From assembly GCA_051294375.1 (NCBI GenBank), contig JBJCIZ010000744.1:1044262-1108261 (forward strand): DNA of 64,000 nt. Direction: 5' to 3'. Shown piece by piece: positions 19,969-45,400 of this stretch. The notes below the pieces were generated by a model. That model made no database searches and was not told where the DNA came from. It was given only the letters and a program-made list of their open reading frames with translations. This DNA comes from Paraspadella gotoi. Its lineage: Eukaryota; Animalia; Chaetognatha. The first letter of the stretch is position 1; every line of letters begins with the position of its first letter. A program made the translations under genes and the position numbers.

Positions 19969-21422
19969 AGACTGACCTGATTACGGATGTAGTTGAGAAC
20001 GATAGATAAGGGCGTGGAGAAGAGGAAGAGGACAAGGAATTCTCCGAGGATTTTAGTCTCGATCTCCACGGAAGTTTCCTGGCATCGCCAGGTCACGCTG
20101 AGGAGACAGAGAGAGAGCGAGACGGTAAGAGTAAAATAATATGAATATTACAATACTTTACATTAACGAGCTAATATGCTAAATATTTTTATAAAGATAC
20201 CCTTTTAACCAAAATAAGAAAATTTTACCAAATACTGCAATATGCAAATGAGATTAAACGGATATAAAAAAAAAAGAACCTGGTATAAAGCCTGGATTGA
20301 TCGACGTCCTCCCAACCGTCGGTGGCGTTGCGATCGTTGGCGCCGGATTTGTTGAGAAGAAGAACTGGACGAGCGGAGGCGGAGTCCAGAGGATAAGGGG
20401 AGAAGAGATTGCGGAGGCGGAGGCGGACGGGGCGGCGAAGGAAAGTAGAGCCGGGGACGATGGAGACGAGCGGGGATGCGACAAAGTCCACGCCTTCGGT
20501 CAGGCCAGCCTTTATGGTTAATAAAAGATATTATTTTATTATATTGAACCTAGGCAATGCCCGACTACATATTTTATTATTATTATTATTTTATATTTTA
20601 TTATATTATTAATAAAAGATATTATTTTGTATTATTTTCATGTGGATTACTCGTCATCCTTCACGAATCATCAGAAAGCCGACGAATCAGAGACTCCGAG
20701 TCTCTCTGTCGATTATTGGTTGGTCGGTCGGTCGGTCTAAAGGATCGACGAAAATCAAGAAAGAACCTTGTTTCAGATAAGCACATAGTCCATACAATAC
20801 AATACATATCCATCAAATCCATGAAAGCTAAACCTCGACTCCAAAAACGACGAATGGCCGACGTCCTTCTCCTTTAACTTACCCCACCCACCCAATCAAC
20901 CCGTCCCCCTTCTCCATTAACTTACCCCACCCCCGTCCCGCCCTCCCCCCCAAAAAAAACTCACCCCCTCCATCGTCTCACAGCTTCGTTCGCCAATTCG
21001 AAAAGATGAATGAATGTCTCTCTCTCCAAACTTCCCTTGGGAATTCGCAGAGTCGCGTTGGAGGTCTTGAGTTCCAGACCCGAGGAGGAGACCACGCCGG
21101 ACGCGTCGTTGAATGCGGGAGCGGCGCCGGGAAATGCGGAGAGGGACGGCGCGGCGCCGCGGAACGGACGGATTGCGGCGCCGGGCTGGAACGAAGGGAG
21201 AGGCGTGGCGACGCCCGAGGGAGACGACGACGAGGTTCCATCGCCGTTGAAGCCGGAAGATTCCGGCGAAGGTAGAAAGGAAGCGGCGTCGGCGGAACTG
21301 TCGGCGTCCGTTTGTCGTTCGGCGTCGGCTTGTCGGCCGGTTTCGGCGTCGGCTTGTCGGCCGGTTTCGGCGTCGGCTTGTCGGCCGGTTGCGGCGCCGG
21401 GGTTTAATTTCGGTTCGGCCAT
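15286..21422 (-). CDS. ZU5 domain protein with probable UPA-like region and C-terminal death-domain-like region
   Basis: GC-rich exons near 21422-20980, 20510-20290, 20100-19977, 19895-19750, 19610-19377, 18575-18250, ~17820-17537, 16657-16510, 16162-~16020, 15462-15286. SSGLELKTSNATLRIPKGSL and VASPLVSIVPGSTFLRRPVRLRL...WEDV are ZU5-like; ALQNLKKSKREEILRKV resembles the end of a death domain. Several exon boundaries are approximate. Confidence 0.6.
16710..17200 (+). mobile_element. Family B LTR remnant split by a ~270-bp insertion (possible 5'-truncated LINE end, minus strand)
   Basis: 16716-16785 matches the LTR-B 5' half (CAGCTCGTCCCA...CCGTGAGTACCGGGTTC) and 17078-17200 matches the 3' half (GGTCCAAAGCCCTGA). 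The insert has a short ORF end followed by AATAAA on the minus strand. Confidence 0.6.
17211..17536 (+). mobile_element. Possible conventional solo LTR
   Basis: Begins TGTAAG, has AATAAA near the 3' end and ends CTTAC; no TSD found. Confidence 0.35.
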
Positions 21423-22094: not shown

Positions 22095-25000
22095 TTAAAG
22101 CTGAAACAAGGACTTGAGTTGAGCCAGCGTGTCATCGGGTCCGTTGACCGAGTGTCCCGTGGTGGATTCGTCGGCGAAGATCTCGAAATCGTTTCCCCCA
22201 GGTTCAGTTTTATCTCCGAAGAAATGGATCGTGGAAAAGTCTTTCAGGTAGCGGAGACAGTAGCGCTTGTCCCAACCCTGGGGAGAGAGGCGGGCCCACT
22301 TTGTAAACTATGTTCTNNNNNNNNNNNNNNNNNNNNNNNNNCGTCTATAAATCAATCAAAAGATTCATCCATTAATCCACAATTATTTCATTCATACGCC
22401 AAATAGTCCTCCATTACATCGATTCATTCATTTATGGACCCATTTATGGATTAATTCATTCATTGATCCATCCATCCCTCCCTCAATCCATTGATCCATC
22501 CATCCATCCCTCCCTCAATCCATTGATCCATCCATCCATCCCTCCCTCAATCCATCCATCCATCCATTGATCCATCCATCCCTCCCTCAATCCATTGATC
22601 CATCCATCCCTCCCTCAATCCATTGATCAATCCATCCATCCTTCAATCCATTGATCCATCCATCCATCCCTCAATCCATCCATCCCTCCCTCAATCCATT
22701 GATCCATCCATCCATCACTCCTCAATCCATTGATCCATCCATCCATCCCTCCCTCAATCCATTGATCCATCCATTGATCCATCCATCCTCCCTCAATCCA
22801 TTGATCCATCCATCCATCCCTCCTCAATCCATCCATCCCTCCCTCAATCCATCCATCCATCCATCCTCTCAACCTCAGGAAAGACGTCGATTGAGATTTG
22901 TCCCCGATGGCGAACTTGAGTCCCGCGTCGGGGAATTCCTTGTAGAGGGCGTCGACGAACGATTTGCGGATCCCGTGTTCGGCGTCGAAGGCGGCAAACT
23001 CGTCCCGTTCCGTCTTGGTATGTTGTAAATATGTAAATAATATTAGGTAGAGTTACTAATAATACTAATGATAGGGTATTTCGAAAAGCCCACGCCATGA
23101 CTTGGTTACTATGTTGTGCTGTAAGCACGCACGTACTCTCTGTGTCTCTCTCTCTCTCTCCGCACCGCCCTCGTTTCCTCCACTACATTAAATAAGTCGC
23201 GCTCTTTCTAACATATTTTAAAAATATGTTCAAAACTATTTTATTGACTTAACATTAAAAGACTGACCTGAGTGCAGCTTCTCCGACGGGACAGAGATGA
23301 TGAGCCCCGTCCTAAACTCGATAAAGGTCCCCTTTTGGCGGGAAGACGAAGTCGCGACATGTGCTGCATCGCAAGTTGATCAGCGTTACATTTGTCTTCG
23401 CCCAAATGTTGAGGATGGATTGAGAGGCGAGGAGTTAGACCGTTCTGGGAAAGAGGAGAGAGAGAGAGGGAGTCGATTTCGCATTAATTTCGAAGATAGT
23501 TTAGAAGAGGGAGTCAATTTACTTTAATTCGAAGATAGTTTAGAGAGAGGGGAGTCAATTATACTTTAATTCGAAGATAGGTTTAGTGAGAGGGAGTCAC
23601 TTTACTTTAATTCGAAGATAGTTTTAGTGAGAGGAGTCACTTTACTTTAATATGAACATTGTATACTTAAAAAGCAGGGATATTTTCTGATGCCTGGTTT
23701 AATGTTTTCCGATCGTTAAAGCTTCCGTTGCCCCAGATAAACAACAATTCTTAGTTTTCTTGGACAAGATAACCTTCTCTTTTCATTGACTGACACATTT
23801 CTTTGTGGTTGTTCATCGTCTTTATTGTGGGCATAATCGTCGTCGTTGACTTTCTCGTCTTCTATCCATCCCTCCCTCAATCCATCCATCCATCCATCCT
23901 CTCAACCTCAGGAAAGACGTCGATTGAGATTTGTCCCCCGATGGCGAACTTGAGTCCCGCGTCGGGGAATTCCTTGTAGAGGGCGTCGACGAACGACTTG
24001 CGGATCCCGTGTTCGGCGTCGAAGGCGGCAAACTCGTCCCGTTCCGTCTTGGTATGTTGTAAATATGTAACTAATATTAGGTATAGTACTAATAATACTA
24101 ATGATAGGGTATTTCGAAAAGCCCCACGCATGACTTGGTTACTATGTTGTGCTGTAAGCACGCACGCACTCTCTGTCTCTCTCTCCGTCACAGCCTCGTT
24201 TCCTTCGTTTCACTTTCTCCACTACCATTAAATAAGTCGCTCTTTTCTAACATATTTTAAAATATGTTCAACTATTTTATTGACTTAATATTTAAAAAGA
24301 CTGACCTGAGTGCAGCTTCTCCCGACGGGACAGAGATTGATGAGCCCCGTCCTAAACTCGATAAAGGTCCCCCTTTTGGCGGGAAGACGAAGTCGCGACA
24401 TGTGCTTCATCGCAAAGTTGATCAGCGTTTGACATTTGTCTTCGCCCAAATGTTTGAGGATGGATTGAGAGGCGAGGAGTTGACCGTTCTGGGGAAAGAG
24501 GAGAGAGAGAGGGAGTCGATTCACATTAATTCGAAGATAGTTTTAGTGAGAGGGAGTCAATTTACTTTAATTCGAGATAGTTTGAGAGAGGGAGTCAATT
24601 TACTTTAATTCGAAGATAGTTTAGTGAGAGGGGTCACTTTACTTTAATTCGAAGATAGTTTTAGTGAGAGGGAGTCACTTTACTTTAATATGAACATTGT
24701 ATACTTAAAAAGCAGGATATTTTCTGATGCCTGGTTTAATGTTTTCCGATCGTTAAAGCTTCCGTTGCCCCAGTTAAACAACAATTCTTAGTTTTCTTGG
24801 ACAAGATAACCTTCTCTTTTTCATTGACTGACACATTTCTTTGTGGTTGTCATCGTCTTTATTGTGGGCATAATCGTCGTCGTTGACTTTCTCGTCTTCA
24901 TCGTCGTCTTAAGCACCTCATGAGCGACGAGCCCATTCTCCGTGAAGACGAAGTCGTATTTTTCCAAGAGGTCTTCCCCAAGTTGCTCCTTGATTTTGCA

Positions 25001-25098
25001 GAGATCAGATCCGCTGACGACGCCGACGAAGCATTTCTCGCGGAGTCGGGAGAGGCTGGCCTTTGGGAGGGAGGGGGGGGAAGTTAGTTGTGTCGGTT

Positions 25099-25146
<48 letters not shown>

Positions 25147-25298
25147 GCTCTTCCTTCCCTCCCTCCCAGTCTCGCCTTCATTTCGTCCGTGGCGACTTTG
25201 CGCGACGGAGACAGAGTGCCGTCGACGTCGAAGAGACAGATGGAGTTGGGTCGCGTCTCTGTCTCTCGATTCCCCGAGTTTGACTTTTCATTGTTCAT
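22095..25298 (-). CDS. PMM2: Eukaryotic phosphomannomutase (PMM1/2, Sec53 family, HAD fold), 5 exons
   Basis: Exons 25298-25176, 25060-24917, 24488-24306, 24047-23907, 22277-22095. Motifs [75 protein letters not shown]. Intron 1 is GC-AG. Confidence 0.95.
22455..22866. repeat. (CCAT)n-derived compound repeat
   Basis: Directly visible; starts at a PMM donor site. Confidence 0.95.
22836..23860 (-). other. Tandem ~1 kb duplicate of PMM exons 3-4 with indels
   Basis: Near-identical to ~23862-24900, but with scattered 1-bp indels that break the frame. It lies next to a (CCAT)n tract and an N gap, so it is probably an assembly duplicate. Confidence 0.8.
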
Positions 25299-25640
25299 TT
25301 TTTTTTTGGTTTTTGTTTTTTTTTTCAGAGGGACTAGAGAGGAAGACTCTGTCAAATTCCGACAAATCATAAACAAATCATTAACAAAACAAAAAAATAA
25401 TAACATTGATTTTTCAAAACAAACTTTCCGGAAAACAAAGAAAAAGTTGGATTATTATTTTTTTGTTTTTCTTCCTTTAATTTAGTTTTAACGATGACGA
25501 ATAGATGATCATAAAAAGTTTTGAAAAATATGTGACAGATCTTTGCTTGCGCTTTCGTATTAAGCTTGTTCGAAAGAAGTTAAATTGGTAGGCAAATAAA
25601 AAAAAATGGAGTAAAGAGGAATTATTAAATACTTTTATAT

Positions 25641-26141
25641 TATGAAATTGGCACAACCAATATAAAAATTATCCATTCATTTAATAAATAAGCTATCTTG
25701 CCCCCGACTTTGGACAGGCTTTAGTGGTTTTAAGGCCTCGGTCACTCTTACAAGATAATGACATAGCATGTCCCTGAAAGCTTTCAATCAAGAATCTCAC
25801 AGTCTCGTTTATTCATTCCCAGAATACCTGGCTTCCCTAGAAATGATATCAATGATATCAATTATATATTATATCTAATACTTAAGGGAGTGGTCTTTTC
25901 ATACAATTGAAACATTCTTTGAAATATTTTCCACTTCATTAATAGGGAAGCCAGGTACTCTGGGAGTGAATAAACGGGACTGTGAGAGAGTCTTGTTTGA
26001 AAGCTTGCAGGGACCTGCTATGCCATTATCTTCTAAGAGAGATGGAGGCCTTAAACCACCAAAGCCTGTCCAAAGTCAGGGGCAAGATAGCTTATTTATT
26101 AAATGAATGGATAATTTTTATATTGGTTGTACCAATTTCAT
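25641..26141. mobile_element. Foldback MITE with ~200-bp TIRs; fragments at ~1617, 4817, 7330, 18960-19220, 31735, 33285, 33822
   Basis: TATGAAATTGG.ACAACCAATATAAAAATTATCC...GGCTTCCCT is mirrored by AGGGAAGCC...GGATAATTTTTATATTGGTTGTACCAATTTCATA. Confidence 0.85.
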
Positions 26142-26959
26142 ATCAAGGTGGCGATGATGATGAAGATGATGATACGGATAACTTTGGTGGTAAATCTTTT
26201 GTCCCAAAATCCAAAAAATCCTTTCCAAGATGCGAGGGATGGGAGGGGGATAGAGAAAAAACCTGACTCTGACCTGAAATATTTTTCTTTCTCCTTCTCG
26301 CTGTGACTCGTCTTATGTAATAATATCATCATCGCGACTTAAGTCTTAATCATCGAAGATCGATCCATCCATCCATCCATCCATTTATCGATCGGAAAAG
26401 TCGAAAAAAAAAAACAAAAGGCGAAAATCGCTCGAATTTTAAATTTTGTTTCGGAGGAATTAGGAAATATTTTTGGTTTTCTCTTTAAAACATAAATCTG
26501 CAAAGGAGAAAAAAAAAATTAACATATAAACGAACGACGGGAAAATTTAAACATTTTTTTTTAAATGAAGGACGAGAGAGAAAAGCGTCAACAAAGAATA
26601 AATTTATTTTTTTCATTTAAAAACGAGAAGTGAACAAGTTTTTTTTTTCCGAGTCAAAAAATAATAATTAAAAAAAAAACTGGATATAAATGATGATGCG
26701 AATGACAATCGTCGTGGTCGTCGTCGTGGTCGTCGTGTTCGGCGAAAAAGGATGATGCCGGCGAATGAACGAGTCCGAAGCCGACGAAGCGATCCAAATA
26801 TCTAACGTGAGAATCCGAGGAAAGTACGGCCCAGACGTCGCCGGATCTCTGGTCTATAACGCTGCCCCGACTTGGCCAAATGTCCACTTTGAACGTCGAC
26901 TCGAGAGAGACACAGTTTGTTTCCTCCGAGGTCTTCTTTCCTTTTCCTCTTCCTCCTCC

Positions 26960-29528
26960 TCAGTATTTCTTCCTCCTCAAAATCTCCGGCTTCCACAAAA
27001 CCGGATGCGTCTCTTCCGTCGCAGTTTCGTCTTCTTTGTAAACTTTGATGGTTTTGTCGGCCTCGCAGGTGAGAAGCCGACTGCCCGAATGATCGAAGGT
27101 CATGGCGAAGATGCCAGCCTGGGGGAAATTTAATCGAGGGGAATAGGGGAAAAAAAAAAGTATTTTTCAAAAAACTAATTAATAATAAAATTACTCTTAA
27201 TAAGTTACTAGAAACGGTAGGCGAAAAAGAAGGATTCCGCAAAGAAATATATATTTTTTTTTATTTATTACGTTAACTCAAGATTTAGACGTGATTTGCA
27301 TATTACGGTAATAGAAATATAGTTTATTCACAACGCTATCCGAAGTTAATGTAGATAAGGCGCTAATTGGGATGAAGAGTGATATCCATAACTCCTTTAA
27401 CCCCATCTAGTAGCTATGGAACGGGACCAGGGCTTGGAACCTGGGTTGAAGGATTTACAGGCCACCAAGGCGGTTTACGGCCGTGCTCACTGCTCGCTGC
27501 TCGCTGCTCAGTGAGCACTGTTCAGTGCTCACGCTTTCCACTGAGGAGGAACCATTGGGGATCGATCCCGCTACCTGGTCATGAGCTGATGGTTTTACTC
27601 AATGAGCTACCGAATAACGAATGAAGGACGAATTGGTCATGTTTATAGGCGGGGTTAACTTATGCTAAGCCCGACTACATTCATAACAAAGTCATACATT
27701 CATAACCGAATATAAACATGATTTAAGATTTAAGATGAGTCTTAAGATTTTTCGCCACTGAAGATTCGAAAGATGATGTGACGCTCATATTCCTATAGGA
27801 GTGACCGACCTCGGAATCGATGGAGCCCGGTTGCACGACCGTCTGATGTCGCTGGAAATTGTATCCCGTCCTCCAATCCCAGAAGTTTATCGTTCCGTTG
27901 TCGGCGCCCGAGACGAGGACGCCGTCTGCGTTGACCGCCGTCGTGTTGAGGATGGCGTTGTGGCCTGGATCAAGAGTTAATTGGTTAATTTAATTAAATA
28001 AATTTAATTAATTGATGGTGGCGTTCTGGCCTGGATCAAGAGTTAATTGGTTAATTTAATTAAATAAATTTAATTAATTGATGGTGGCGTTGTGGCCTGG
28101 ATCAAGAGTTAATTGGTTAATTAAAATCCTTTACTACATTTTAATAATTAGAATAGTTGGGAGATCTTTCGGTCGATTTATTTTTTCATGAAACCAAAAG
28201 ACAGATGAAAAACTTATCACCATCAAAATTTAGACAAATATGGGATTTTAAATGACACCAGAATGACAAAAAGCAGAATTAAATTTTGTTTTTTTTATAA
28301 AAATGGACTAAACATTTGGCTCAAGTCTTTCTTTAAGTAACTCAACTTCCGCTTTTTCAAGTCAAAACTTTAAAATTTTTCCGTCAACCCTCTCTCCAAC
28401 CATTTTCCATCAACCCTCTCCAACCATTTTCCATCAACCCTCGCCAACCCTTTTTTCCATTCTCCCCGTTTCCAATGACCATCGACTTTGACCTGTCAAG
28501 TTCTGAACAAAGTTTCCATCCGGGAACCGCCATTGCTTGATGTTGTCGGCCGAAGCCGACGCCATCATGTTGAGCGTCGGGTGAAGGGAAAGAGACCTGA
28601 CCGACTTTTTGTGATTCGTCAGAGAAGAGCGAGTCTTGCCCGCCACGAGGTCCCAGAGACGGATGGTCGAGTCGTGAGATCCTATTGTATACGGAAAATA
28701 ATACGGGTAACCGGATGTAATTTGATTAGAGTAAAAAAAAAAGGAAGGATGGAAAGTCACTGACCGGTGACGACTTGAGGTTCGGACGCCTGACAGACCA
28801 CGCTGGCGATGGTGTTGGTGTGTCCGGAGAGAGCGTGGATTTGGGCCTTTGTGCGCATGTCCCAAACGCGGGCGGCGGAATCTCGGCCTGGCCGAATTGG
28901 TAGGGGGGGTGAGTGGGGGAAAATGAGAATGAGGTAAACTAATAATTAAGAACAATTAGTTAATAATTAAGAATAATTAATAAGAAAAAAGAAAAGAGAA
29001 AATTATCAAGAAAACGAAAGAAGGAAAATGAGGTCGACTAATAATTAAGAATAATTAATTAATTAATTAATAATTAATAATAAAAAAGTGAAGAGGAAAT
29101 TAACAAGAAAGAATAAGGAAAACCAAAGAAGAAAGATTGACGAAATGATTGATAGACTGACCGACAAGACTGACCGACAAACCGGACCGACAAACCGGAC
29201 CTCACACACAAATCGATTCGCTTGGCTAATTCATCGTCGATCTTTCGATTCTCCGTCCATCGAGATTCAAAAAAAAAACAAAAAACAAAAAGAATCGATC
29301 GACCATCATCGTAGGTCCCTTTGGTCTGTCAGTCAGTCTCAATTGGTCTGTCAGTCATTCACGGTTCACATCATCGACCGCATCTACGTGAGGCGCGGTC
29401 TCGGATGAGGTGATTCAATCTGTCTTTCGGACGGTTAAATCAAATCACTTTTAAAAAGATCAAATACTAATCAGTAATCACGGACCCCGTCAGACAAAAT
29501 TTCCCGGATCTAGGATGATCTTTCTCTC

Positions 29529-29568
<40 letters not shown>

Positions 29569-30368
29569 CAATCGCGCGCGATGATGAAAAATCAGGGATC
29601 AAATTTGTTTCTCGCCGCAGAATAATAAAAAAAACCCAAACAATTTCTGGCGGCTCAATCGAGGGGGGGGCTTTCAGGGGGGTGGGGGGCTTTCAGGGGG
29701 GGGGGTGGGGGGGTTGAGGGTTTGGATGTTAGAAATAAAGAACGAGATCGAACCAAGTGACTTAGGACCCAATGAATGAACGAATGAGGAAACGACTGAA
29801 TCCAACGTTTCTTGAGGGCCGAGAAGATGGGCGATTTTTTTTTTGGTACGGGCGAAACGGCAATGAATATCGTCTTTATTACCATTCAAACGAAACTCCT
29901 AACAACTTAAATCAAGAATTCACACTTTGTCGAAATCTTTTCAAGACAACTGAAAATCACAAATTGTGAGAAGATCACTGGCGATCACGTAATTGAACGT
30001 TGTCGACGCAGAGAGAGAGAGAAATAAAGCGATCGGCAATGAAAGAATATAGTCAACAGAAAAATAAAGCGGAGCTGTGACTTTTGGCCTTCGCTGTGGA
30101 TTTAACAATTAACTTTCAACAATGAATCAATCAATGTAAAAACAGCGAAGCTATATAATAAACAATGGAAATATTATGGAAATAATAAACGAGGAAATAA
30201 AGCGAGGTCGGCAGTAATGAAACAATGACCTGTATTCCATATAAAAGAATAATAATATAATAATATATTACATAGAAAAGCCAAAACGATTCCGGGGGCG
30301 AAGAAAAAAGTAGATTGTCGAGCAAAAGTGAAGAAAAAGAAAAAATGTTTGATCATAAATAAGAACTG

Positions 30369-30418
<50 letters not shown>

Positions 30419-33400
30419 AGTACAGCATTGAAATAATTATAATTATATGAGATTTATTTAAAAAATAAGAGGTGGCGACAGAACACGCTCAGATTTGAGG
30501 TTATTTTTCCTGTCATAACAAATGAGCGACCAAGTATGGGGGAATTATAAGCTTTTTCAACGCTTGTGGGACCGACCGACGAACAAATAAACCGACCGAC
30601 AGACCGACCGAAAAGTGACTAATAGAGTTGCCACCAACTAAAAAACAGAGAGTGAAAGAGAGAGCATACATAATTTGATAATTGAAAAAAAAAAAAAAAA
30701 CCGAAATAAAAATCAATATGCAAATGAGATTAAGAGACAGTTTAGCGATTGGTGATGGTCTACCTGCGGTGACGAGGAGGTCGATGGTGGGATGAAGGGC
30801 GAGCGAGTAGACGGCCGAGAGATGACCGTGATAATGGCGGATGACTTTGTTCTGTTCCAAGTCCCAACATTTTACCATCTTGTCTTCGCCCGCGCTAATA
30901 GTGGCAAAGATGGGAACTAAATGTAATTACAACATCAATATTTATAATGTATAGAATCGCAACCTTTTTATTAATGAAATCGATTTTAATATCAATTTTA
31001 AAATCAAGAGGAAAAATAAAAAATTAGTTAATGGGGATATGAAGAGAGTAATTAACAAAAGTTAAATCATTAATATTGTGAAAAAGGCGCCAATTGGGCT
31101 GAAGAAGATTAACGCTTGCTTCATCAATACCCACTAGCAACTAAGGAATATGGGGGTCGCTACAGTAGCCTACTCCTCGAAAGCGGCTTAGGGCTGACCT
31201 CACGCTTTGGGTAAGGGCCGGTACAAGATAAGAATTTAACTCGATACCCAGTCATGAACTGGAGTGAACCTTTATTAATTTATAAATAATAATAAAATCA
31301 TTATAAACCATCAAATAAATGAAAAATTGAGTAACCTAATCTAATCCAACTTACCTGAAGAGGTAAGGGTGTCGGGGTGAGACGGCGAGACCCCTCACCG
31401 TCGACACATGACCCGTGAGTGAAAGCTTGAGTGTTCCAGAGGCCAAATCCCAGATCTTGATGGTTCGATCCGCAGAACCTGGAGATGGGAAGTGAGGAAA
31501 TGGTGAGGAATGAGTAAGACGTGGGGATAAGAGAAGGAATGAGGTTATGAGGATAAACGAGAAAGAAAGAGAAAGAGCGAGAAAGAAAAAGAGCGAGAAA
31601 GAAAAAGAGCGAGAAAGAAAAATAGCGAGAAAGAAAGAGCGAGAAAGAGCGAAAGAGAAAGATTTCGGCAGCTGCAGAACTCGACTCGTTTTTGGAAAAA
31701 GAGAAAGAAAAAAAAAAGGTTTTGTTTATATAAAATCATTTTTATATTTTTATATTGGTTGTACCAATTTCATATAAACAAAGAAGATTTAACATATCAC
31801 CCTCATCAGTTTTCAAGAACCTCGATGATGAGAATATATACGTAAATTTTCAGCTTTATACGAATACCAAACGATATTAGAAAAAGCAATCTATAATTAG
31901 GAACGCCGACGACGCCATTAATCGGGACAATCGAAACAAAATCGTCGCAAGCGAAAGATTGGTTCGATTGACGACGACGAACGAGTTTGACGAAAGCGAG
32001 AATTCTCATTTCAGAAATCGGTTTCGGCACGGCTCTTGGCAAAAAAATATTTTTCGTTCGAGATTATTTTTGACGAGGCGCTCGTTTCGAAAGTCACTTG
32101 GCCAAAAAATAACTAGAAATCCACAAGTCTATAAAACATATTAAGGAGTGAATCGAACAAATTTAGCACCGATTGTCTCAAAAAAGGTAAGGATAAATTT
32201 TATTACAAACAAATTTAAAAAAAACTACTAAAGAAAAAATAGTGGTTGAATAATGAATTACTTCAGATTACCTTTAAATATTTTTGGGTTGCATTGTCGT
32301 AGCAAAATCCTTTTTCAAAACCATTATTTTTCTAGTATTAGTATGAAACCTTACCTTTAACAGCACTAAATATTTTTTTCACAGAAAGGTAAAGAAATTA
32401 TAAGCAGTCTTTTCATACAATTAAAACATTCCTTTAAATATTATACCAAAGTTTGCAGCTATGTTTGGATACCATGACCTATCTACAATTTTTAATAATC
32501 GTAAGTAGGGGTAGCCGCATTCAATGGGGTGAGGCAAAAATTTAGAGTGAGTACATGCTCAAACGAATATTTAGACATTTTTAAGAATACTTTTAATGGA
32601 CAAAAAATTTCAAATATGGCTCTATACCCTAGTAATTAATTTTTTAATAATTATTTATAGATTTTTTAAATATTTTTACATTAAGTGTGTCAAAAATAAG
32701 AAAAACTATAAAAAATCATCATCATCATCATCTTTCGATGATTTTATCATTTTTTTTTATATTTTCACTTAGAAAATGTAAGAATTTTTAAAAGCTGTAA
32801 ATATATTTCTTGTTTAACTTTTTATGCTCTATCAGAATCCATCAAAAAATTTTAAGATTTAAAAAAAAAAAAAATTTTGCTCCATATAGTAATATAATAT
32901 TTTTAATTAAGCAAGTACCCTCAGAAAAAAGCATTTTTGACAAAAAATATTTTAATACCATAATCTATGGTCATGATAGATTATTTTAACGCTGTATACA
33001 TTAGCATTTAAATTTCATCGGCTATGGCTATCGTAAGAAAACATTTATCTCAAAGATATATACCATGAAAAATACTGTTCTTCAGAAACTTGTTCCGTTC
33101 TTTACAACATAAGAACAATTTTTTAATTGTTTAAATTTTAATTAATTAATTTTATTTAATTAACTGTTTTTTCTCTCTATTTTATAATGTTTTTTGTTTG
33201 CTCAGACTTAGTCTATGTTTGTTTGTTTGTTGATGATGATTGTACTGAATCAACCTCGTTGTATTCGAAAAAAATCGCATATATTATCTTGTAAGAGAGA
33301 TGGAGGCCTTAAACCACCAAAGCCTCTCCAAGGTCAGGGGCAGAATAGCTCATTTATTAAATAAGTGGATAATTATTATATTGGTTCATATAATTTATAT

Positions 33401-36400
33401 AATTTTAAATGTTCTATAAGTTTATATTAATTATTAAAAGCGTTTGTCAAAAAAAACCGAATGATTAATGCAAGACCAGTGTCGCTATTTTGTAGTCTGG
33501 CATTGCATAAGTTCACCCCGCCTACAAGCATGACACCTTCAGTCGTTACACGGTGGCTCATTGACTACTAGTTACAGGGTTCAATCCCAACCCGGTACCT
33601 ACCCTGCGGGAAGCGTGAGGACGGCCGTAAACCGCCTTGGGGGCGTGGAAAACCCCCAAGCCTGGTACCAAGCCCAGGATCCGTTCCATACTAGCTGCCC
33701 AGTAAGGCGGGCAAAAATTGAACACTTTTCTTTTTTCCTTCTATTACTAAATCGATTTTCAATGCAACTTTTTGAATTAGTTCATTGGGTTGTTGCACTG
33801 AAGCTTTTGAATATTTATTGATATGAAATTGGTACAACCAATATAAAAATTATTATTATATAACAAATGATAAAATTTTTTTTTTAATTTATTTTTTAAG
33901 AACGGATTCTTATAGAGCTTGAAAAGTTAAATGAAAGTTAATACTACAATTTTTTAAAGTTTTGACAAGAAATTGGTTAAAAACAAAAAAAAGGTTAAAA
34001 AATCATCATCATCATTGGCTGAATTTTATGGTTTTTTAAAATTTTTATCAATAAAACAAAAAAATTTTTAAAAATTGTATTAATAACCTTTATCTAACTT
34101 TTAAAGCTCTATCAGAATCTATCAAAAAAAATTTAAAAATTTAAAAAAAAATTTTTAACTTTATATAGTAATAAAATAATCTTTAAAGGCTTCCGTGCGC
34201 TTATTAATGAAATAATTTTTTAAAATTATTTTTATTTTCATATTCTCTAACAGTCACTTTACCATTATTTATTTGAGAGAACTTCTAGTTTTCAACCTGT
34301 TCCGGCCTACTGCCCAGGGGGCACAGAAGTTACGGATAGTAGCCCACTTAGCGCCTTATCCACATATTTCTCTGCTTTAATTTTTTTACACTAAATAATA
34401 GGCCTGTAAGAAGTACCTTTTCAGCGTTGCTGCATTTATTTTTTATTTATTTTACAGTACAAAATGGAAAAAGAAATTTTAATTCTAATAATCGGATCGG
34501 TACTCAACATAATCGACATATACACAGACATAAAAACAACCTTTGAGTACATGACCTCAGCCTTTTGGATTTTTCAGAGAATTGGTCACATCATCTGTTT
34601 GATACTAATAATTCATTGTGTGGTTTCCGGCACATATGGGTTGTCTATTATATATAAGCAAAAAAAATATTATAGAAGTTTTTATAAAAACTGGTTTACA
34701 ATTTGCACAACTTCTATCTTTTTTGTTTTCGGCTTGGGTTCAATTCCTATTTCAATAGATTTGTATTTGGAAAAAAATACAAACCAAAAAATTAAAAGCT
34801 CCAAAAGTAAACTTGCGCTGTTAATGAATTTATTTCAATGTATACTAGAAAGTTTTCCACAACTTGTAGTTCAAACAGTAGGTTTGATCTTTTCCCTTAC
34901 AAGTGCTACAAATAATAAACATTGCTTTCCAAGTTATCTATCAAGTCCGAATTTTCAGATTAGAAAACCAACATGCTCTGACGATATAGGATCTTATAAA
35001 TACCATACAAGATACTTTGATTCATACAGGCAAAATCTTTCTATAATTTCAAATGATTCAATCACCGAAACAGATGAACCATGTTTTTGCAAAGAGGTGC
35101 GTTCTTATATAGGCCACAGTGAATTTGCTTGTGAGTGGAGCCTCAAAGACCACTATTTTCAATTATTATCAATAACGATGTCTTTGATAGGACTTGCAAA
35201 AGGATCCTCAGCTTTTAAAACATCAGTAGATGAAACAATATCATTAAATAATGTTTTATTAAAATTTTTGGAATTTTTTTGCGTCATACAAGGTTTAATA
35301 GGAATGAGTGTAAGCTTATACATAATTTTCAGTAATAGTATTAAATTTAACATCTGGTTTACTCTTATGGTTCCAATTACAGTTATGCGTATTTTTACTC
35401 AAGAAGAAATATTTCTGCTATTAAAAACCATACATCTCCAAACAAAACAGAGATATACAGATGGCTTTCAAATTACCAAATCAAAGATATCTCAAATTTT
35501 ACTAATACCTCTTTTCAATTTTTTTATTTACTCACTGTTTTATAACATAGAAATGCAAGCGATTACGTCAGAAAGTGTGGAAAGTATAAATGATATATAC
35601 AGCAGTCCTCACACCCCTTATTTTTGGGGATTGGCCAGACTCAAAAATGATAACATGCCACGGCTTTTGTTTTATTATGATATTTGGAAATTTTTTAATA
35701 TGTCATACAATTACCAAGATATTGGATTTATTTATGCAAAATTTTGTCATGATTCATTCGTTGATAGATATCAATCATCACGGTTTTTTTGGAAATGTAG
35801 AAAAACATAAAATTTACAATTTAGAGTATTATGGTAGACTAAAATCTACCGTTTATCAGCGGCCATTGGTGCAGGAGGCAAGTCATTCGCCTCCCAACCC
35901 AAAGGTCCGGGGTTCTAGTCCGGTGGTCACCTAGCAGTTAAGAGGGAAGGGGCGCTTAACCTGCCTGTAACACGGTGTTACAGCCTGATCCGAAGCTAAC
36001 TCATGACAATTATTACTGTCTCTTCACTATAATGTTATTTATAATACAGAACTCTTAATTTTTACCTTGTTCCACCTTTCTGCTTACTAGGGTTAAGTGA
36101 AAGTTTGGAATCAAAATTTAGTAGTTTTATCTTGAAAACTATCATATTAGTGAATACTAATCTGTAGTTATTTTTTTTTTATATATGTAGTCGGGCATTG
36201 CCTAGGTTCACCCCGCCTATAAACATGACACTTTCAGTCCTGACCCGGTGGCTCATTGAGTAAAGCCATCAGTTCATGACCATAGGTACCGGATTCAATC
36301 CCAACCCGTGTACCTACCCTGGGAAGCGTGAGGACGGCTGTAAGCCGCCTTGGGGCGTGGCAACCCCTCAAGCCTGGTTCCAAGCCCAGGACCCGTTCCA

Positions 36401-39400
36401 TGGCTACTAAAGGGGTTATAGAAGTTACGAATAGTCATCTTCAGCCCACTTAGCGCCTTATCCACACTGGTGAGCCCATCCTGTCGAACGTATTCCAACC
36501 TTCTGATTCCAGGCCCATGGACGTGCTGAAGATTGCTCCCCTCCCTCCACTGGAAGCAGTGCAGGGTGGGTTACAATTTGGGGGCATGTAGTCGGGCATT
36601 GCCTAGGTTCACCCCGCCTATAAACATGACAAATTCAATCCTGACCCGGTGGCTCATTGAGTAAAGCCATCAGCTCATGACCACTAGGTACCGGGTTCAA
36701 TCCCAACCCGGTACCTACCCTGTGGGAGCGTGAGGACGGCCGTAAGCCGCCTTGGGGGCGTGGCAACCCCTCAAGCCTGGTTCCAAGCCCAGGACCCGTT
36801 CCATGGCTACTAAAGGGGGTTATAGAAGTTACGGATAGTCATCTTCAGCCCACTTAGCGCATTATCCACATATAGTAGCCCAGTGAGCTTATTTTGTATA
36901 TAGTACTACCCTTATATAATGTCAAAATTTCAAAATAGTTTTTTTTTAATATTCTGATAAAAGATTCAGATTCTTCGTAAAAAGTTGATAAAAAAAATAT
37001 AAACCTTTATCAAAAATTATATCATTTAATAGGGTAAAATTACAAAAAACTATATTTTTAAGCTGGAAATTAAAAATCAGCGTCTTAAATATAGTTTTTT
37101 ACATTTTTGTCCAACTTAATGAAAGAAGTTTTAAAAACAAATTATACTTTCTTATATCAACTTTTTGCAAGGAATCTAAATCCAATCAGAAAATTTAAAA
37201 ATTTGTATTTTGAAATTTTAGCCTATTATATACTTATTACTATATAAAAATATAGCTCACTGGTGCCCACTAATGTATAAAATTAAAAAGTAAATTTACC
37301 AAAGTATTTTTATTGGTGTTTACTTTCATGTTTTATATGCTAAATTTTAATTTTCTAAAATTTTATCATTTTCACATCACTCTACTGCTTACAGTTAAAT
37401 TATCAAAGACAAAAGTTTCACACACGTTTTTCCTACTTTCCAAAGAACTGTACCATATTGGGACGAATCTCATACATTTACAACAAATTGTATTGGATTT
37501 AAAGGCTTTGGTGATGGAAGTCAATGGAAAATTGAAATATTTTTTAAATTCAAAAAACTTAAAAATGATTCCAAAGCTTGTCAAAAACCTTTAAGAAACT
37601 ATGGAGTGGTCAAAAGTAATTATTTGCCTGCTTTTCCAAATTTGGTTTTGAAAATAGGCAACTACAGATTGTTTTCATTGACATACATCAATTTAATGCT
37701 TCTCATATTGCTTGATTTTGTTCTGGGCTTTACATACACATGCGTTTTTTTATTTTCTCAAGGCGTGATTTATCTGTATATAGACAAATTAGTCGCCATT
37801 TTAGCAATGGGGTTTATAATATATTTAAATATCATAATAAGCGTATTAAGATTTAATCTTCGAAATATTCCGACAAAAATGAAGGAAAAAATTTCAATAG
37901 CAAATTCTCAACTTCAAATACTAAAACAATATGAACACACACTATTAAATAATGAATTAGATCCCACTCTTCCTAACATTATAACAAATTCGAAAATTAA
38001 TGAGTCATTGCAACTTATGTTTAAAGAAACAAAAGCATCTTACAATGAATTCCTTAAAAAAAAAACTTTAGAAATGTTTTGGCATGAACAGCAAGAATTT
38101 GTTTTTTCGAAGTTGATACAACAATTTTTACCTGTATCACTAATAGCTTTAACTTTCTTCACTACAAAAAAAAATATCATTGCATTAAACTATCTCTGCC
38201 GAACCATAATTTATGTTGGATTAATCTTAGGAATATTGGCTTGTCAGGTTTTTATATGCTTGTTTAATAAATATTTTTATAAAGACATTCTACAATTAGT
38301 CAATGAAATATGTACTATGGAATTGTATACGGATAATAAAATGAAAATGTATGAATTGAAAATTATAACATGGATATTTTTAAAAGAAAATGAATTTGTT
38401 CTAGAATACTTAATTGCTTCTTCAATGTTCTTTTTTTTTCAACAAATTTTTCTTTCATTTAAAAAAGAATTAGGAAAAAAATGTTGGAAATTACTTCTTT
38501 TAATGGAAGCTTTGGGCATTTATGCTTTAATTACCGTAATACTTTTAAAAAAAAGTTTGATAACAAAAACAGAAAATATATCTTTAATTAATGCTGTAGG
38601 GTACTTATCTTTAGGAATGATGGGATTACAAGAATTAAGATATCAATCGCTACTAACAATAATTTTACAAGAAAATTCAGGTTTTATGTCTGAATGTAAA
38701 TTTGCAGCAACAAATACATATAGAATTTCAAGGATTGAGTACAGACATATATTCAACGAACATTATAATGAAAGTTATTTTATTCAAATGGTATCCAGAA
38801 TAATCTATTGCTCATGGAAAAAGTAATCTTTGAACAAAATTCGGATGGAATTAACTTTTTATCTTGGTACTTGATTATTTTTCCAATAATGATGATAATA
38901 TTCGAATGAAACTTTTACTATTTATTTTACCTNNNNNNNNNNGGAAAAAGTAATCTTTGAACAAAATTCGGATGGAATTCACTTTTTATCTTGGTACTTG
39001 ATTATTTTTCCATTAATGATGATAATATTCGAATGAAACTTTCACTATTTATTTTACCTTGTGTACTGAAGTGGTCTTTACTACTACATTGTGTATTACA
39101 TAACTCTTTAATTATTAATTGCTCTTATTGAATTTGGTAAGCTTTAACCACATGTTCCACTCAATATTTCTAATCATTACGTACAGAAAGGCAGGCCAAA
39201 ATTTATCACTTTATATCATTAGAAGTTTTGTAATACAAAATTATTTTGTCCTGGGATACCAAATCGTCCTGCACTATCACCTTTTTAAATATTGAAGTAT
39301 AGTATAACATTGAAGCATAAAATACAGTCATGTACCAAAAAAAAAAGCTACTGTCTTTCATAAAATTCACCCAGTACACTGTGATTTTTGAAAACAAAAT

Positions 39401-42400
39401 TTAAAAGTTAATTAAAGTTTATTAAAATATGAAAAGTTTGATCAGTAGACTTATAGAATTTTTCATAGTCTGTTTTTTTCGCTAATTCCTAACACAACAA
39501 AAAAGAAAGGATTATTACACACTGTGTAATACTGTGTAATACACAGTGATAAATATTATGTCTCGCCTAAGAATCTGTTTAGACTTTTTCCCTCGCTCTT
39601 TAAATGTCGAATTCTTAGTTATTTTTTGACCATCTTTTTATTTGACCCTACGCGTACAGTCAATATCTTTATGGTCTGTCTGTCTCTCCAAAATTGGGAG
39701 AGACTTCTAAGCAACCTTTAGTTTGTTTTCTTGACTGTCTGTAAATGGTAAGTCCCGTCCTCATTCCTCAACTTGAGTTTTATGTGACAATAAAGTGTTT
39801 GTAAACAATTTCTTCGTTTTCTACCCTCGTCAAACTTGCAAGGGGCGGGCGACGCCTTGTTCGCCAGATTTTGCTAGCGTGAAATCAAAGGAAATTTCAC
39901 ACACGGCGTAATTTAGTAATTTATTAATGATGTTCCGATGATTTAGGAGAAAAAATTAGGAGAATAATAACCTTTAGAAGAAACGAAATTTTCGTGGAAC
40001 AACAAAATAATTTTATTAAACATAAAATTTGACATGTTTCGGCTTTGTTCTTCAAGCCTTCATCAGCATTTGAAAAAAGACACAAAAATTTTTTTACCAA
40101 ACATTAGGTTGGTAGAGAGAGAGAGAGAGGAGAGAAAAAAGAGAGAGAAAGAAAGAAAGAAAGAATAGAGAAGACAAGAAAGAAGAAAGAGAGAAGAAGA
40201 GAGAGAGAGAGAGAGTTTCCAACAAAGAATTTAGGAAGGGATAGTGGTCAGATGTGAGAATAGGTGAAGAACAAAGCCGAAACATGTCCAAATTTTATGT
40301 TAATAAAATTATTTTGTTGTTCCACGAAAATTTCGTATCTTCTAATTTAACAAAACAAGAAAAAAGAAAGGATTAACACAAAGGAGAATAACCGAAAAGA
40401 GTTCGAGGGAGGACCGACGGACCGAGAAAGTGAAAGTCCCGCCGGGAAATGAACTTACCAGTGACGAACCATTCGTTGCCCGGTTCGACGGCGATAGAAC
40501 GGACCCAGCCCAGATGGCCCGAGATGACCCTCATGAGCTTCCAAGGGGCGTGCCATGTCGGCTTCGGTACCAGAGTCGTAGACTTCTTTTGGATGAGAGC
40601 CCGGGTTGCGGATGAAGGATCCGACGGTTTCGTCGAGGCTAAAAAGAAAATATCTTAATATTATCATTACAGTACCGGTCTTGGCTTTCATTCATAAGTC
40701 CAGGGAAGCTATATCATATTTCTATATAATGAAAAGGGAATGACTTGAATGCATGTGTGGATGGAACTCGGTATGGTCTATTCCCATTCTATATTTCAAA
40801 AAAAAATTTTGAAGTTTTGTTTTGACCATCATTTTTTTAAAAAAAATTAATTTGCATACTGTGCTCAAAATACTTGTACGATATAATTTTTTTCTCAAGT
40901 AAAAATTACTCTAACATTACTTGGTCAATGGGAAGTGTAACGCTGAACAAAAAAAATATATTTATTTTTAAATTTATGCATAGTTGCTAATTATAATATT
41001 AGCTTATATTATTTTTTATTATTAGTTTAAATTTTATTATAGAAATTAATAGTTGATTAATAGCAATTTTTATTCCTGTAATCAAATTATAATTTTTTTA
41101 TAATTAACTAAATAGTGATTTTTTAATATATACTACAAAATATGATTTTTGATAATAATATTTTTAAAAAAGTTTATGCCAAACTATTGGGGAAATGTTA
41201 CTGATTACAAATATATAAATTTTTTCAAATTTGGATAACCTTTAACGAAATACAGCCCAAAAAAGCCCTAAAAATGGTTAAAACACCTATTTTTAAAAAC
41301 CTTTCTAAAAACTGCAATAACAGAATTTTCAAACTCAAATTTGTAAGGTATGTTAGAATTGGTAGTATTTTATTGCCTGAAAAAATCAGAGAAAGTATAT
41401 AATTTTTACCTTAATTATACAGATTAATAGGAGACGTCCTAAGAAATTCAGTAATTTAAATTTTGCTGAGGTCGTCTAAGTTTTCTCGTATTTTTTTCTA
41501 ATCTCTTGTTTCTTTCTTCTTTTATTCCTCTCCCTTTTTTACTTCATTCTCTCTTCTCTTTAAAAATGAAGAAAAGTGTGAATTTTATCAAGGATATTGA
41601 TGCGCTTTCAAAAACGGAAGTGGCCGAGGAGGGCGATATAGTAGGATCAGTGATATCACTAATACAGAATATTTCATCTAATGTCGGCTTGTTTCGAAAT
41701 GAAACTTTGCAGAGTAGTGATCAAACAATAAGATTTTGTTAACATAAATATCTTTTATGTTAGTCATGTGATCACAGGGAATATACACGTAAAAAGAAAA
41801 AGTCATTGCAGCGCAACCATTATGTGGATTTAAACCCGAGACAGCTCATCCACAAGTATTTGCTCAGCTAATGTCGCCACTCTATAGAGAATGTTATTTG
41901 TTAGAACCTTTAATAACTTAAACGTTTTACTGTTTTAACTTTTGTTTTATCAAACAAATGATCAACTCTAATCATCAGTAAATAGCTGATTCATAAGTTT
42001 CATCTCCATCTAGCTTAGAATCCGATTTTAAAGATCACAAATAATTAAAAACTGACTTCAAATCTCAGCAGTTATTAATTAATTATTACTCTCCGTTATC
42101 ATCTTATTATTTTACTGAGTCTACTAATTGATTGATTGTTTGTCCACGAGATATTCAGATTTTTTGCTGGCAAAAGTACTATGAATACTATATGCTTTGA
42201 TTATTTTATTAAGGTCACATCTTATACATTAACCAAGCAAGTTGTTACATTGAACTTTACCTCAAAGCTTGATAAACTTTGCCTACGCCACGAGCGTCAA
42301 CGTAGCGCTTCTTCTTTCTTCTTTCTCTTTCTTTTTTCTTTCTATGACTATCGTCACTCTATCAAATTGTACACAATAAAAAAAAGAAATGGAAATGACT

Positions 42401-45400
42401 TTGAATGGAAAAACATAAGTCACATTTAGTTTAATCTTTTTACTAATTTTAACATATAATTACACAAATTAATCATAATTAGATGGATAGATTGAGATAA
42501 AATTTTGTGTTTGGTAGGAAAGTGTGTGATTGTGTTAAATATAAAGTTTCGATGGAATCGTGCAAGTGGAAAAGAGTTTAGTAGAAAAAACAAGTCATAT
42601 TTACCTAAACCTTTTTTAATTATTTATTAATTCAGAATTTCATAGATTAACTGATATAAAATTTTGTGTGTGGGTAAGAAAGTGAGTCATTAAGCTCGCT
42701 ATAAAGTTTTGATGGAATCGTGCAAGTAAAATGAGTTTTAATAGAACAAGAATGGTAATTCAAATGTGTTGTGCCGCAGTATCTGCCTTATCACATATAT
42801 TTTTTCGTGACATGACATGCATGATGTAATATGACATGATCTGATATAACATAACTTCATGAATACAATAACTTTCTTAACCCATATATTTAGGACCTGC
42901 ACTGCATCAAAATTCCATCTTTATTCCTTTTAGTTTTAGGATTTTCTGAAGGCGGCTCTGCAGTCTTTTAGATTTCAGGTTTTTTCTGTCTGAACAAATG
43001 AGCAACCAAGTGGGACAGACTGACAAACAGACATACGACTTACCAACGGACCGACCAACCGACAAGTGTCTTATAGAGCTGCTACTCGAGTACTCAGCGC
43101 AACTAAAAAACAAAAGTCACATTTACTGAATTTTATTAAAGTCTCTCTCTATCTCTCTCTTATTCTCTCTCACAGATAAAATTGAGGCGACTTTACTATC
43201 TAGGAAAAAAGTATATAACATAATTCATTTATTTAATAAAAAGTATACAAAACCTGGGTAAAACATTCTTAATATTTGGTATGCCCTTTCTTGCATCGAG
43301 TACTGCCTGCATTCATCTGGGCATGCTCTCATACAGCAAATTGAGGTATGACAGTGAAACATTTTTTTACTACTTTAACGCAATTATTTTCAGACCCGAT
43401 ATTGATGTGCATATCTTTCCCTATTTTCTAAAAAGTATAATAGCACTTTTTTGAACCAAAAAGAGGTGCAAATAAAATAAAAATAAATAACTAAATACCA
43501 AAAATGGAGGAAACTAAATAAGATTTTTTTTCCCATTTTTTATTTGAAGTAACAATATTATTGGCCTGTAACTTCTAAATGATTTGACCTACAAAAAAAA
43601 TGAAAGGAAGCTACTAAAAAGAAATTCAATGTAGATCCGGAAACATTCTAATTTTTTTAAATCATACAAAATTTAGAATAGTATCCTTTATTAAAAATGT
43701 TATATACTTTTTTCCTAGATAGTACTACCGGTCTCCTCACTAAATCCTCTCTCCTCTTTCTCTGAGCCGGTCAATCCACACGGTCACTTTGCCCTAGCTT
43801 TGCAATTACCTTAGATTGATCGGACAAAGCAATAGGGCCAAGGAGACCATAAGGTAAAGCCAGTGATGATAAAAGTGGATCAGGAGAGAGTTCTCTCACT
43901 CCTTTTAAACTTCTCTTACATCGTCACAATACTTCACCTACAAATATGGCTACTTGTTAAGTTGATCGACTGATTTTTTAATGATTTATTAAAAATATGT
44001 TATGATTTATAAAATAATGGTTAATCATGAAAAAATTATTTTTAAAATATGCAAGTTTCCGAATTAGGCAAGTTGACCAAATTATGACAGTTAACCAAAT
44101 TATGCCAGTTGACCATATTATGCAAATTAACTAAATTATGAATGTTGACCAAATTATGCCAGGTGACCAAATTATGCAAGTGACCAATAATGCAACTAGA
44201 CAAAATTATGCAGTTGCCTAAATAATGCCAGTTAACCAAATTATGCAAGTTGACTAAATTATGCAAATAAACTAAATTATGAAAGTTGACCAAATTTTTC
44301 AAGTAACCAAATTATTCAGTTGACTAAATTATTCTATTTGACCAAATTATGCCAGCCGATAAAAATGTATTCAGTTGACCAAATTATGCCAGTTGACGAG
44401 AGAAAGAGAGAGAAAGAGATGAAGGAAAGAAAGGGAGAGGTAATACAACATCGCAAGAAGAAAGAAACAAAGAGATAAAAAAAAAAACGACCTCAGCAAA
44501 ATTCAAAATTACCTGAATTTCTTAGGACGAATCCCTATTTAATCTGTATAGTTAAGTAAAAATTATTACTACGTCTCTGATTTTTTCAGGCCATAAAATA
44601 CTACCAATTCTAATATACATTACAAAATTTGAGTTGAAAATTCGTGTTATTGCAGTTTTTAGAAAGGTTTAAAAAATAGGTGTTTTTAACCATTTTTAGG
44701 GCTTTTGGGGCTGTATTTCGTTAAAGGGTTATCCAAATTTGAAAAAATTTATATATTTGTAATCAGTAACATTTTACCAATAGTTTGGCATAAACTTTTT
44801 TTAAAAAAAATATTATTTATCAAAAAAAACTATTTTGTAGTAATATATTAAAAATCACTATTTAGTTAATTATAAAAAAAATTATAATTTGATTACAGCA
44901 ATAAAATGCCTATCAATCAACTATTAATTTCTATAATAAAAAAGTTTAACTATAAATAAAAAATAATAATAAGCTAATTATTATAATTAGCAACTATGCA
45001 TAAATTAATAAATAATATTTTTTTTCAGCCTAACACTTTACCATTAGACCAAGTAATGTTAGAGTAATTTTTACTGAGAAAAAAAATTATATCGTTCAAG
45101 TATTTTGAGCACAGTATACAAAATAATTTTTTTAAAAAAATGATGGTCAAAACAAAACTTCAAAATTTTTTTTTGAAATATAGAATGGGGAATAGACCAT
45201 ACCCAGTTCCATCCCACACATGCATATCAAGTCATTCCATTCATTATTATAGAAGATATAGCTTCCCTGGACTTATGAAGGAAAGCCAAGACCGGTACTG
45301 TATGTTGAAACCGTTGTTTTTGTTATTCATAAAAAAGTAGAAAATAAAATTGACAAATAAAAATAACCCGACGGGTTCCAGTTGGCGAACCTAAAATTAT

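Follow-up and report, generated by a model that had tools for sequence, protein, structure and literature searches.

Within a 64,000-nucleotide stretch of the chaetognath Paraspadella gotoi genome (contig JBJCIZ010000744.1, positions 1,044,262 to 1,108,261; hereafter the window, whose numbering is used throughout), we analysed a 685-bp retrotransposon with two long terminal repeats (LTRs) at 36186–36870. It has an LTR, primer-binding site (PBS), interior, polypurine tract (PPT), LTR layout and a 4-bp target-site duplication, and its LTRs carry A and B boxes of RNA polymerase III (Pol III) type and a twister ribozyme fold, the pairing of which is kept across three LTR families. On balance we favour the view that this is a terminal-repeat retrotransposon in miniature (TRIM) of the Helenus type with a tRNA-derived promoter remnant and a type-P5 twister fold in each LTR, and that it likely follows a retrozyme-like cycle through a self-cut circle. 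An earlier reading of the same DNA, here called the original prediction, had described the element and its tRNA-like module and missed the fold, which is the novel part and changes the likely mechanism.

The two direct repeats with TG...CA ends hold at the coordinates first given for them (Table 1). The 5′ LTR measures 281 bp and the 3′ LTR 284 bp, and their alignment, at 95.1% identity, contains 9 mismatches and 5 one-base gaps. Between them lies a non-coding interior of 120 bp, which is present once within the window, with diverged versions in contigs of the sequencing runs. It opens with a C followed by TGGTGAGCCC (36468) and closes with GGGGGCA, so that the proposed PBS and purine tract are both where they were said to be. 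The plus strand of the element has no open reading frame of 90 codons, and the minus strand has one stop-to-stop frame of 91. The PBS, TGGTGAGCC, begins 1 nt past the 5′ LTR and is common to three LTR families found in the window, of which the flagged element represents family 1. All three occurrences of TGGTGAGC on the two strands of the window sit 1–2 nt behind an LTR end of these families, and family 2 has GGGGTGGGCA in the place of the purine tract. We rejected self-priming, since no internal complement to the PBS does better than 7 of 9 Watson-Crick pairs, and the best one lies away from the predicted cut.

TATA borders the element on both sides, which alone is weak because the flank is AT-rich. 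Contigs from three of four sequencing runs contain a junction from 36180 to 36870 that skips 689 bases (685+4) and leaves an empty site with one TATA; since the flank is itself repeated, the source may be a paralogue instead of an allele. Loose contig ends number 42–60 before 36186 in each of three runs and 14–59 behind 36466 in four runs, and lead to unrelated flanks. The LTR-interior junction is bridged by diverged contigs (three records) and the interior-LTR junction by two records. Family 1 has eight loci within the window, four of them with both ends, and the duplications of these four comprise two exact ones (TATA and GATG), one matching at 3 of 4 positions and one that is ambiguous between 4 and 5 bp; the GATG copy is the solo LTR to which the original prediction had pointed, and the motif stands on both of its sides. 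Among four family 3 copies, one duplication is exact and two match at 3 of 4 positions.

Single units with a tRNA-like part account for most copies in the window, as they would if the pair were two tRNA-derived short interspersed elements (SINEs) lying 120 bp apart by chance. Fixed TG...CA ends, 4-bp duplications around both the pair and a solo unit, and diverged contigs that contain the interior argue against this, and it is refuted by the 685+4-base empty-site junction and by the PBS behind the first unit in three families; we consider it hardly credible. Sharp ends, LTR-interior contigs and 4-bp duplications where these are clean instead bear out the earlier view of a non-autonomous LTR element that is not a SINE, and the signs that would have refuted it in other copies, a missing LTR-PBS-PPT-LTR layout or SINE-like variable tails and duplications, did not emerge. 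The flagged copy is probably not an active master, judging by the mutated B box and palindrome of its 5′ LTR and by the 14 differences between its LTRs.

The tRNA-derived unit of the 3′ LTR has an A box at 36650–36661, a CAT loop at 36674–36680 and a B box at 36694–36704. TGGCT and GGTTC occur together in the 3′ LTR and the solo LTR, and when the LTR was shuffled by dinucleotides 60,000 times, the combined pattern came up 60 times; it is confined to these two LTRs in the window because the B box of the 5′ LTR has changed from GGTTC to GATTC. The boxes and the anticodon-like loop of the original prediction were thus recovered, but the tRNA fold was not. No cloverleaf forms: 2 of the 5 possible pairs are made in the anticodon stem and no more than 5 of the 7 in the acceptor stem. 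ARAGORN at default settings reported no tRNA in the whole window, and an Rfam scan of the element gave no tRNA match at E≤10. These results rule out a functional tRNA-Met, and as far as its letters tell, the unit is an A/B-box promoter remnant. At lowered ARAGORN thresholds the heads of the three families resemble different tRNAs (Trp-like and Gly-like ones among them), identities that are weak because the same settings label the ribozyme as a tRNA too. A B-box-like motif lies 30–40 nt ahead of the ribozyme in all three families and is where families 1 and 2 match best by BLAST (16 of 17 nt). Neither TTTT nor AATAAA/ATTAAA is present in the flagged element or in families 2 and 3.

Directly 3′ of the tRNA unit, each LTR contains a twister fold. 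An Rfam scan placed Twister-P5 among the top matches of each LTR, at one and the same offset (16.6 and 16.8 bits, E ~1), and Twister-P5 scores in this material range from 16.6 to 19.3 bits against an Rfam cut-off of 37.6 bits. Read by hand, the 3′ LTR has the P2 3′ strand GCGU (36728–36731), the catalytic GA (36732–36733), the T1 strand GGA (36734–36736), a palindromic CGGCCG in place of P1 (36737–36742), UAA (36743–36745), the P2 5′ strand GCC (36746–36748), the T2 strand GC (36749–36750), an 8-bp P3 (36751–36775) and P4 (CCUG/CAGG, 36776–36779/36790–36793) around L4, GUUCCAAGCC (36780–36789), while P5 strands close the ends. Cuts are predicted between the U and the AA of this UAA, at 36341/36342 in the 5′ LTR and 36743/36744 in the 3′ LTR. 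Every P2, T1, T2 and P4 pair is also present in the 5′ LTR, and both LTRs, like the other families, have the catalytic G and A, UAA and L4. A twister-core descriptor that spans all three twister permutations had three matches in the window (both LTRs and family 2) and hit 2 of 60,000 shuffled LTRs, though it was composed after the motif had been seen and permits a P2 of 3 bp with a bulge, against 4 bp in the Rfam consensus.

In cis, P1 amounts to 1–2 pairs, and P2 to 3 pairs with a bulge in families 1 and 3 and to 4 pairs in family 2. The bulged form, G-N-G-Y against R-C-C with a one-base bulge, is shared by families 1 and 3 and a fourth, non-LTR repeat described below. Assays of natural twisters (PMC11662667) indicate that P1 is dispensable and that bulges and deletions in P2 are tolerated, whereas catalytic residues, pseudoknots and L4 are sensitive, and tolerance of P1 and P2 defects is also reported in PMC5113685. 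The parts that are sensitive in natural twisters are intact here. From this pattern we expect with good confidence that the LTR twister would be active in vitro. The UCC/GGA variant of the T1 pseudoknot is also found in an unrelated type-P1 twister of metagenome contigs L006 and L014 (Rfam E 4e-7). A search for the twister pattern with a 6-nt P1, which serves as background and for the T1 variant only, gave 21 loci, all of them in metagenome contigs and none in viral contigs; BLAST links none of these to the element, and 3 of the 20 scanned have an Rfam twister match. Twister-like motifs below the cut-off were noted in metagenome contigs L001 (298–370, minus strand), L006 (800–852), L014 (808–860) and L021 (391–442), and L014 has a second L4-like motif at 2–17.

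The fold recurs in other families. The three LTR families give BLAST matches of 10–22 nt at most, and their LTRs are otherwise unalignable, yet each has an intact fold behind the B box as well as the shared PBS. P2, P3, P4 and P5 pair by different sequences in each family; T1 is UCC/GGA, CCA/UGG and CCG/CGG in families 1, 2 and 3, the closing pair of L4 is G-C or A-U, and one P4 pair is U-A or A-U. In an alignment of eight copies, 67 of 71 cells (94.4%) are paired, against 11–50% in slid controls, and two-sided changes occur at four of nine pairs, a number also reached by 69 of 500 shuffles in a control that ignores relatedness. Family 2 matches two Rfam models (twister-P1, E=0.013; Twister-P5, E=0.2), and the type-P1 reading was rejected, as it pairs 1 of 3 T1 positions versus 3 of 3 under the P5 reading. 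A model built from the eight copies detected the fourth repeat, which has the same fold with a two-sided change (AC/GU) in T2. Its copies lie at 18958–19246, 25873–26146 and 33283–33413 on the plus strand and 25624–25849 on the minus strand; they have a palindrome AGGCCU, a bulged P2, a 7-bp P5 and an AT-rich tail that follows the twister, and no tRNA box, PBS or LTR ends. This repeat is possibly a Penelope-like or SINE tail and the donor of the twister module.

Variation within family 1 was followed in contigs of four runs over 36712–36812 (1,832, 2,271, 1,065 and 217 contigs), with variant shares that are weighted by depth and ends of the interval that are poorly seen. Substitutions of at least 2% occur at six positions, of which four fall in the 9-nt P3 loop (hypergeometric P=0.0013) and the other two keep their pairs (P2 G-U to A-U, P3 G-U to G-C). 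The 36 core positions show no substitution of at least 2% (hypergeometric P=0.018, over 36730–36805), and both insertions among the contigs are in linkers. This evidence bears on the idea that the element is a plain Helenus, the twister being an inert relic of a captured SINE or Penelope-like fragment. A non-LTR repeat with the same twister variant, which could be the donor, is present in the window, Helenus has been proposed to arise by insertion of a SINE into an LTR (Kojima 2024, PMC10886601), the differing tRNA resemblances of the three heads suggest modular capture, and the Rfam scores are below threshold. Common family 1 variants that spare the core and keep pairs, an older copy with a two-sided P4 change and an intact fold at the same place in three unalignable families are hard to reconcile with inertness, and we rate the relic as quite improbable.

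The P1 segment suggests how the fold might be used. In 12 of 12 parsed copies it is a fully self-complementary 6–8-mer, in four different sequences, and its self-duplex is worth −6 to −11 kcal/mol, compared with +3 to +6 for the hairpin. In the axolotl, hammerheads that have one pair and a palindromic tetraloop show better cleavage in dimeric form, and RtcB circularises the products (PMC7229834). In the cycle that we favour, Pol III would start at the tRNA unit of the 5′ LTR and read through the whole element, and the twisters would cut in both LTRs, releasing a 402-nt unit with the PBS, the PPT and the promoter of the 3′ LTR. Because P1 is too short for a stable hairpin and is self-complementary, the two LTR ribozymes may pair through it and cut as a dimer, a step that could just as well fail as hold. 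If cutting takes place in pairs, neither a solo-LTR transcript nor the completed circle would be cut, as each has a single ribozyme. The 402-nt unit would have no terminal repeat, so circularisation would be needed to rebuild the LTRs. By analogy with retrozymes, a host ligase of the RtcB type would seal the unit into a circle, a host tRNA would prime at the PBS, reverse transcription round the circle would restore both LTRs, and a Gypsy-type integrase would insert the DNA.

An active twister might instead do no more than make the 3′ end of a linear Pol III RNA, with the 5′ ribozyme uncut and no circle. The 100 nt from the tRNA start to the cut site would then be an R region for ordinary strand transfer, which the geometry makes usable; in the absence of polyadenylation and TTTT signals some other device for the RNA end is needed; and in nested folding the 3′ hairpin of the tRNA unit and nearby sequence compete with P2 and P5. 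LTRs are identical at birth, however, so the 5′ copy alone would have to be silenced, it is established chemistry that twister cleavage yields a cyclic phosphate, the palindromic P1 suits paired cutting better, and plant LTR retrozymes with this layout cut in each of their LTRs and form circles (PMC4918200, PMC7761336). We therefore hold this alternative to be unlikely, if the most serious of those considered. The ribozyme cycle might also be real but served by Pol II, from a TATAAA in U3, or by host read-through, with a vestigial tRNA unit. A start site would be irrelevant if both LTRs are cut, TATAAA lies ~20 nt before the family 1 tRNA unit, the A box is imperfect, and the LTR of a plant retrozyme has promoter activity itself (PMC9695139). 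The B-box-like motif is kept in three families and no TATAAA was seen at the corresponding place in families 2 and 3, which makes us judge this version very unlikely.

Several observations weigh against the self-cutting, circularising Helenus that we prefer, in addition to the after-the-fact descriptor and the shuffles noted above. All Rfam twister scores lie under the curated cut-offs (16.6–24.1 bits versus 37.6 or 67.2), and no twister match was obtained from Rfam for family 3. Nested folding recovers P3 and P4 with a probability of 0.5–0.9, and P2 and the tested short P5 register with a probability near zero; pairing of the palindromes across LTRs is also near zero in such folding, which cannot model pseudoknots. 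The covariation rests on three or four families and few events. Among the 12 parsed copies, only five, including both flagged LTRs, keep all P2, T1, T2 and P4 pairs, and decayed or truncated copies stand outside this set (family 1 at 0.6, 15, 20 and 31 kb; family 2 at 16.7, 17.1 and 58.9 kb; family 3 at 5.4, 7.2, 17.9 and 35.9 kb), the 31-kb copy of family 1 having a broken palindrome. Owing to the weighting by depth, young high-copy subfamilies dominate the variant shares. The A box is without the YGG of most Helenus, a TATAAA stands upstream of the tRNA unit in family 1, and missing TTTT is weak evidence in such short sequences. The 402-nt unit folds moderately (z=−1.8, 62% paired), and more than 70% pairing has been quoted for metazoan retrozyme RNAs. 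Cleavage, transcript and circle are predictions.

In structure the element is a Helenus, and on our reading it would act like an LTR retrozyme. Helenus (TRIMp3) elements are non-autonomous LTR elements of animals with a tRNA-derived promoter remnant and 4-bp duplications (PMC10886601), so the name given in the original prediction for tRNA-bearing animal TRIMs was correct. For published Helenus, too, Pol III transcription is an expectation. The present element shares with them its non-coding nature, a length within the reported 311–1,263 bp, solo LTRs, a non-functional tRNA fold, A and B boxes in the LTR, a PBS, a PPT and the 4-bp duplication seen in animals; it differs in that ~155 nt including the ribozyme follow the tRNA unit, which in the excerpted descriptions lies near the LTR 3′ end. 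The Helenus paper does not mention twisters (no matches). Eight twister L4 motifs, among 11 motifs queried in its supplement, gave five with no match and three with one match each, none in a twister context in the passages shown, although line breaks and cut cells can hide matches.

Plant LTR retrozymes have a type III hammerhead in each LTR, a tRNA-Met PBS and units of 600–1,000 nt (PMC4918200, PMC7761336). They resemble the present element in being non-autonomous, in having a ribozyme motif per LTR, a PBS, a PPT, a 4-bp duplication and a presumed Gypsy helper, and differ from it in host and ribozyme class; a tRNA-type promoter is not described for them in the excerpts. Animal retrozymes are stated, in the text available, to be without LTRs, PBS and PPT. 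In Rfam scans both two-LTR elements of the window gave twisters, and no hammerhead at E≤10, so that the element is possibly retrozyme-like in action and not a retrozyme as defined. Like type-P5 twisters (RF02684), it has the catalytic G and A, UAA, T1, T2, L4 and P2–P5 in the same order and identity; unlike them it combines a P1 of 1–2 pairs round a palindromic tetraloop with both P3 and P5, its P2 is bulged and three pairs long in families 1 and 3, its score is under the Rfam cut-off, and its activity is predicted. The twister T-variants of Schistosoma Perere-3 also have a weak or absent P1 and lie within a retrotransposon, but this is a non-LTR element of the RTE type with a single ribozyme of P1-type permutation at its 5′ end and no tRNA promoter (PMC8501958). 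Type I hammerheads of amphibian retrozymes share the one-pair stem and palindromic tetraloop and cut as dimers (PMC7229834), and SINE-like repeats of Schistosoma combine a Pol III promoter with a hammerhead (PMC6765202); both systems differ in ribozyme and in being tandem non-LTR repeats with no PBS, PPT or integrase-type duplications, as far as excerpted. We found no LTR element with a twister in a literature that was covered mostly outside subscription papers, and, in a comparison confined to literature and not extended to Repbase or Dfam, no animal LTR retrozyme, twister in a true LTR or naturally dimeric twister in print. To our knowledge, the one place where twisters have an assigned function is the 5′ end of non-LTR elements.

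Table 1. Features of the element and related copies in the window.
Feature	Position	Strand	Basis
Left target-site duplication TATA	36182–36185	+	Flank reading; empty-site joint of 689 bases, 3 of 4 runs
5′ LTR, family 1; one mutation each in B box and P1 palindrome	36186–36466	+	
tRNA-derived unit of 5′ LTR; A box intact, B box GATTC	36242–36313	+	
Twister-like core of 5′ LTR, P2 3′ strand to P4 3′ strand	36326–36390	+	Rfam Twister-P5 16.6 bits, descriptor
Interior, 120 bp, non-coding	36467–36586	+	
PBS TGGTGAGCC	36468–36476	+	Position behind LTR, sharing among families
Short purine tract GGGGGCA ahead of 3′ LTR	36580–36586	+	
3′ LTR, family 1, TG...CA	36587–36870	+	
tRNA-derived unit of 3′ LTR	36643–36714	+	
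Type-P5 twister fold of 3′ LTR	36720–36806	+	Rfam, descriptor, pairing, variation pattern
Right target-site duplication TATA	36871–36874	+	
Family 1 solo LTR, GATG duplication, T2 pair broken	58490–58775	+	
Older family 1 solo LTR, 42-nt insertion, two-sided P4 change (U-A to A-U), flanks TGAA/TTAA	27350–27679	−	
Family 1 solo LTR interrupted by AT-rich repeat; flanked on either side by TATTT (5 bp, or 4 bp and a slipped T)	33491–34364	+	
Family 2 two-LTR element; tRNA unit and twister in both LTRs, PBS 62785–62793, 3′ end decayed and no duplication recoverable; predicted cuts after 62677 and 63117	62533–63215	+	
Family 3 solo LTR (TA...CA), TAGG duplication, tRNA-Gly(CCC)-like head, complete twister; predicted cut after 3827	3725–3958	−	
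Family 3 LTR copy, 3′ part of twister deleted	35830–36026	+	
Decayed family 3 LTR, then shared PBS; second LTR not seen	5395–5590	−	

Other traces of family 1 in the window include a remnant at 31075–31300 inside a PLRG1 intron and, at 20545–20569 on the minus strand, an exact copy of the first 25 bp only of the LTR within a local AT-rich duplication. The AT-rich repeat that splits one solo LTR occupies 33690–34316 and has relatives at 32506–33030 and 61692–62303. The flagged element is itself flanked by two intronless AT-rich frames with hydrophobic stretches (34410–35810 and 37399–38826, plus strand; 466 and 475 codons), which have no Pfam match and are unlike the other genes of the region, which are rich in introns. 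Exons of host genes (U1A/SNF, PLRG1 and others) were noted at 12606–12740 and, on the minus strand, at 28434–31473, 40373–40654 and 22844–25451; the U1A/SNF exon is identical to its best match in the PDB, U1A, at 36 of 40 residues, and one exon piece is from what we take to be a phosphomannomutase-like gene. An inverted repeat of ~900 bp, 88% alike, at 40668–41561/44403–45302, with 18-bp tandem subrepeats at 44035–44419, looks like a foldback or DNA transposon. Local duplications at 22828–24899 and 7354–8563 (~1,040 bp, 94%, and 375 bp, 98%) lie beside N gaps and have many one-base indels; they are possibly assembly noise, and such noise may inflate the divergence between the LTRs.

If our reading is true, Helenus and retrozymes, two separately described kinds of element, would be joined by an abundant group of animal TRIMs that carry both a promoter and a twister. 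It would offer an answer to the question of how a Pol III-driven LTR element with neither terminator nor poly(A) signal sets the ends of its RNA, and two predictions follow from it, a circular RNA of 402 nt and a twister that depends on dimerisation. Because Rfam thresholds miss this twister variant, such elements may be overlooked elsewhere. A wider radiation of animal LTR elements with their own Pol III promoter and a dimer-only twister, whose circle would be copied by a Gypsy-type helper, is a tentative extension of these findings that we put forward while leaning against it.

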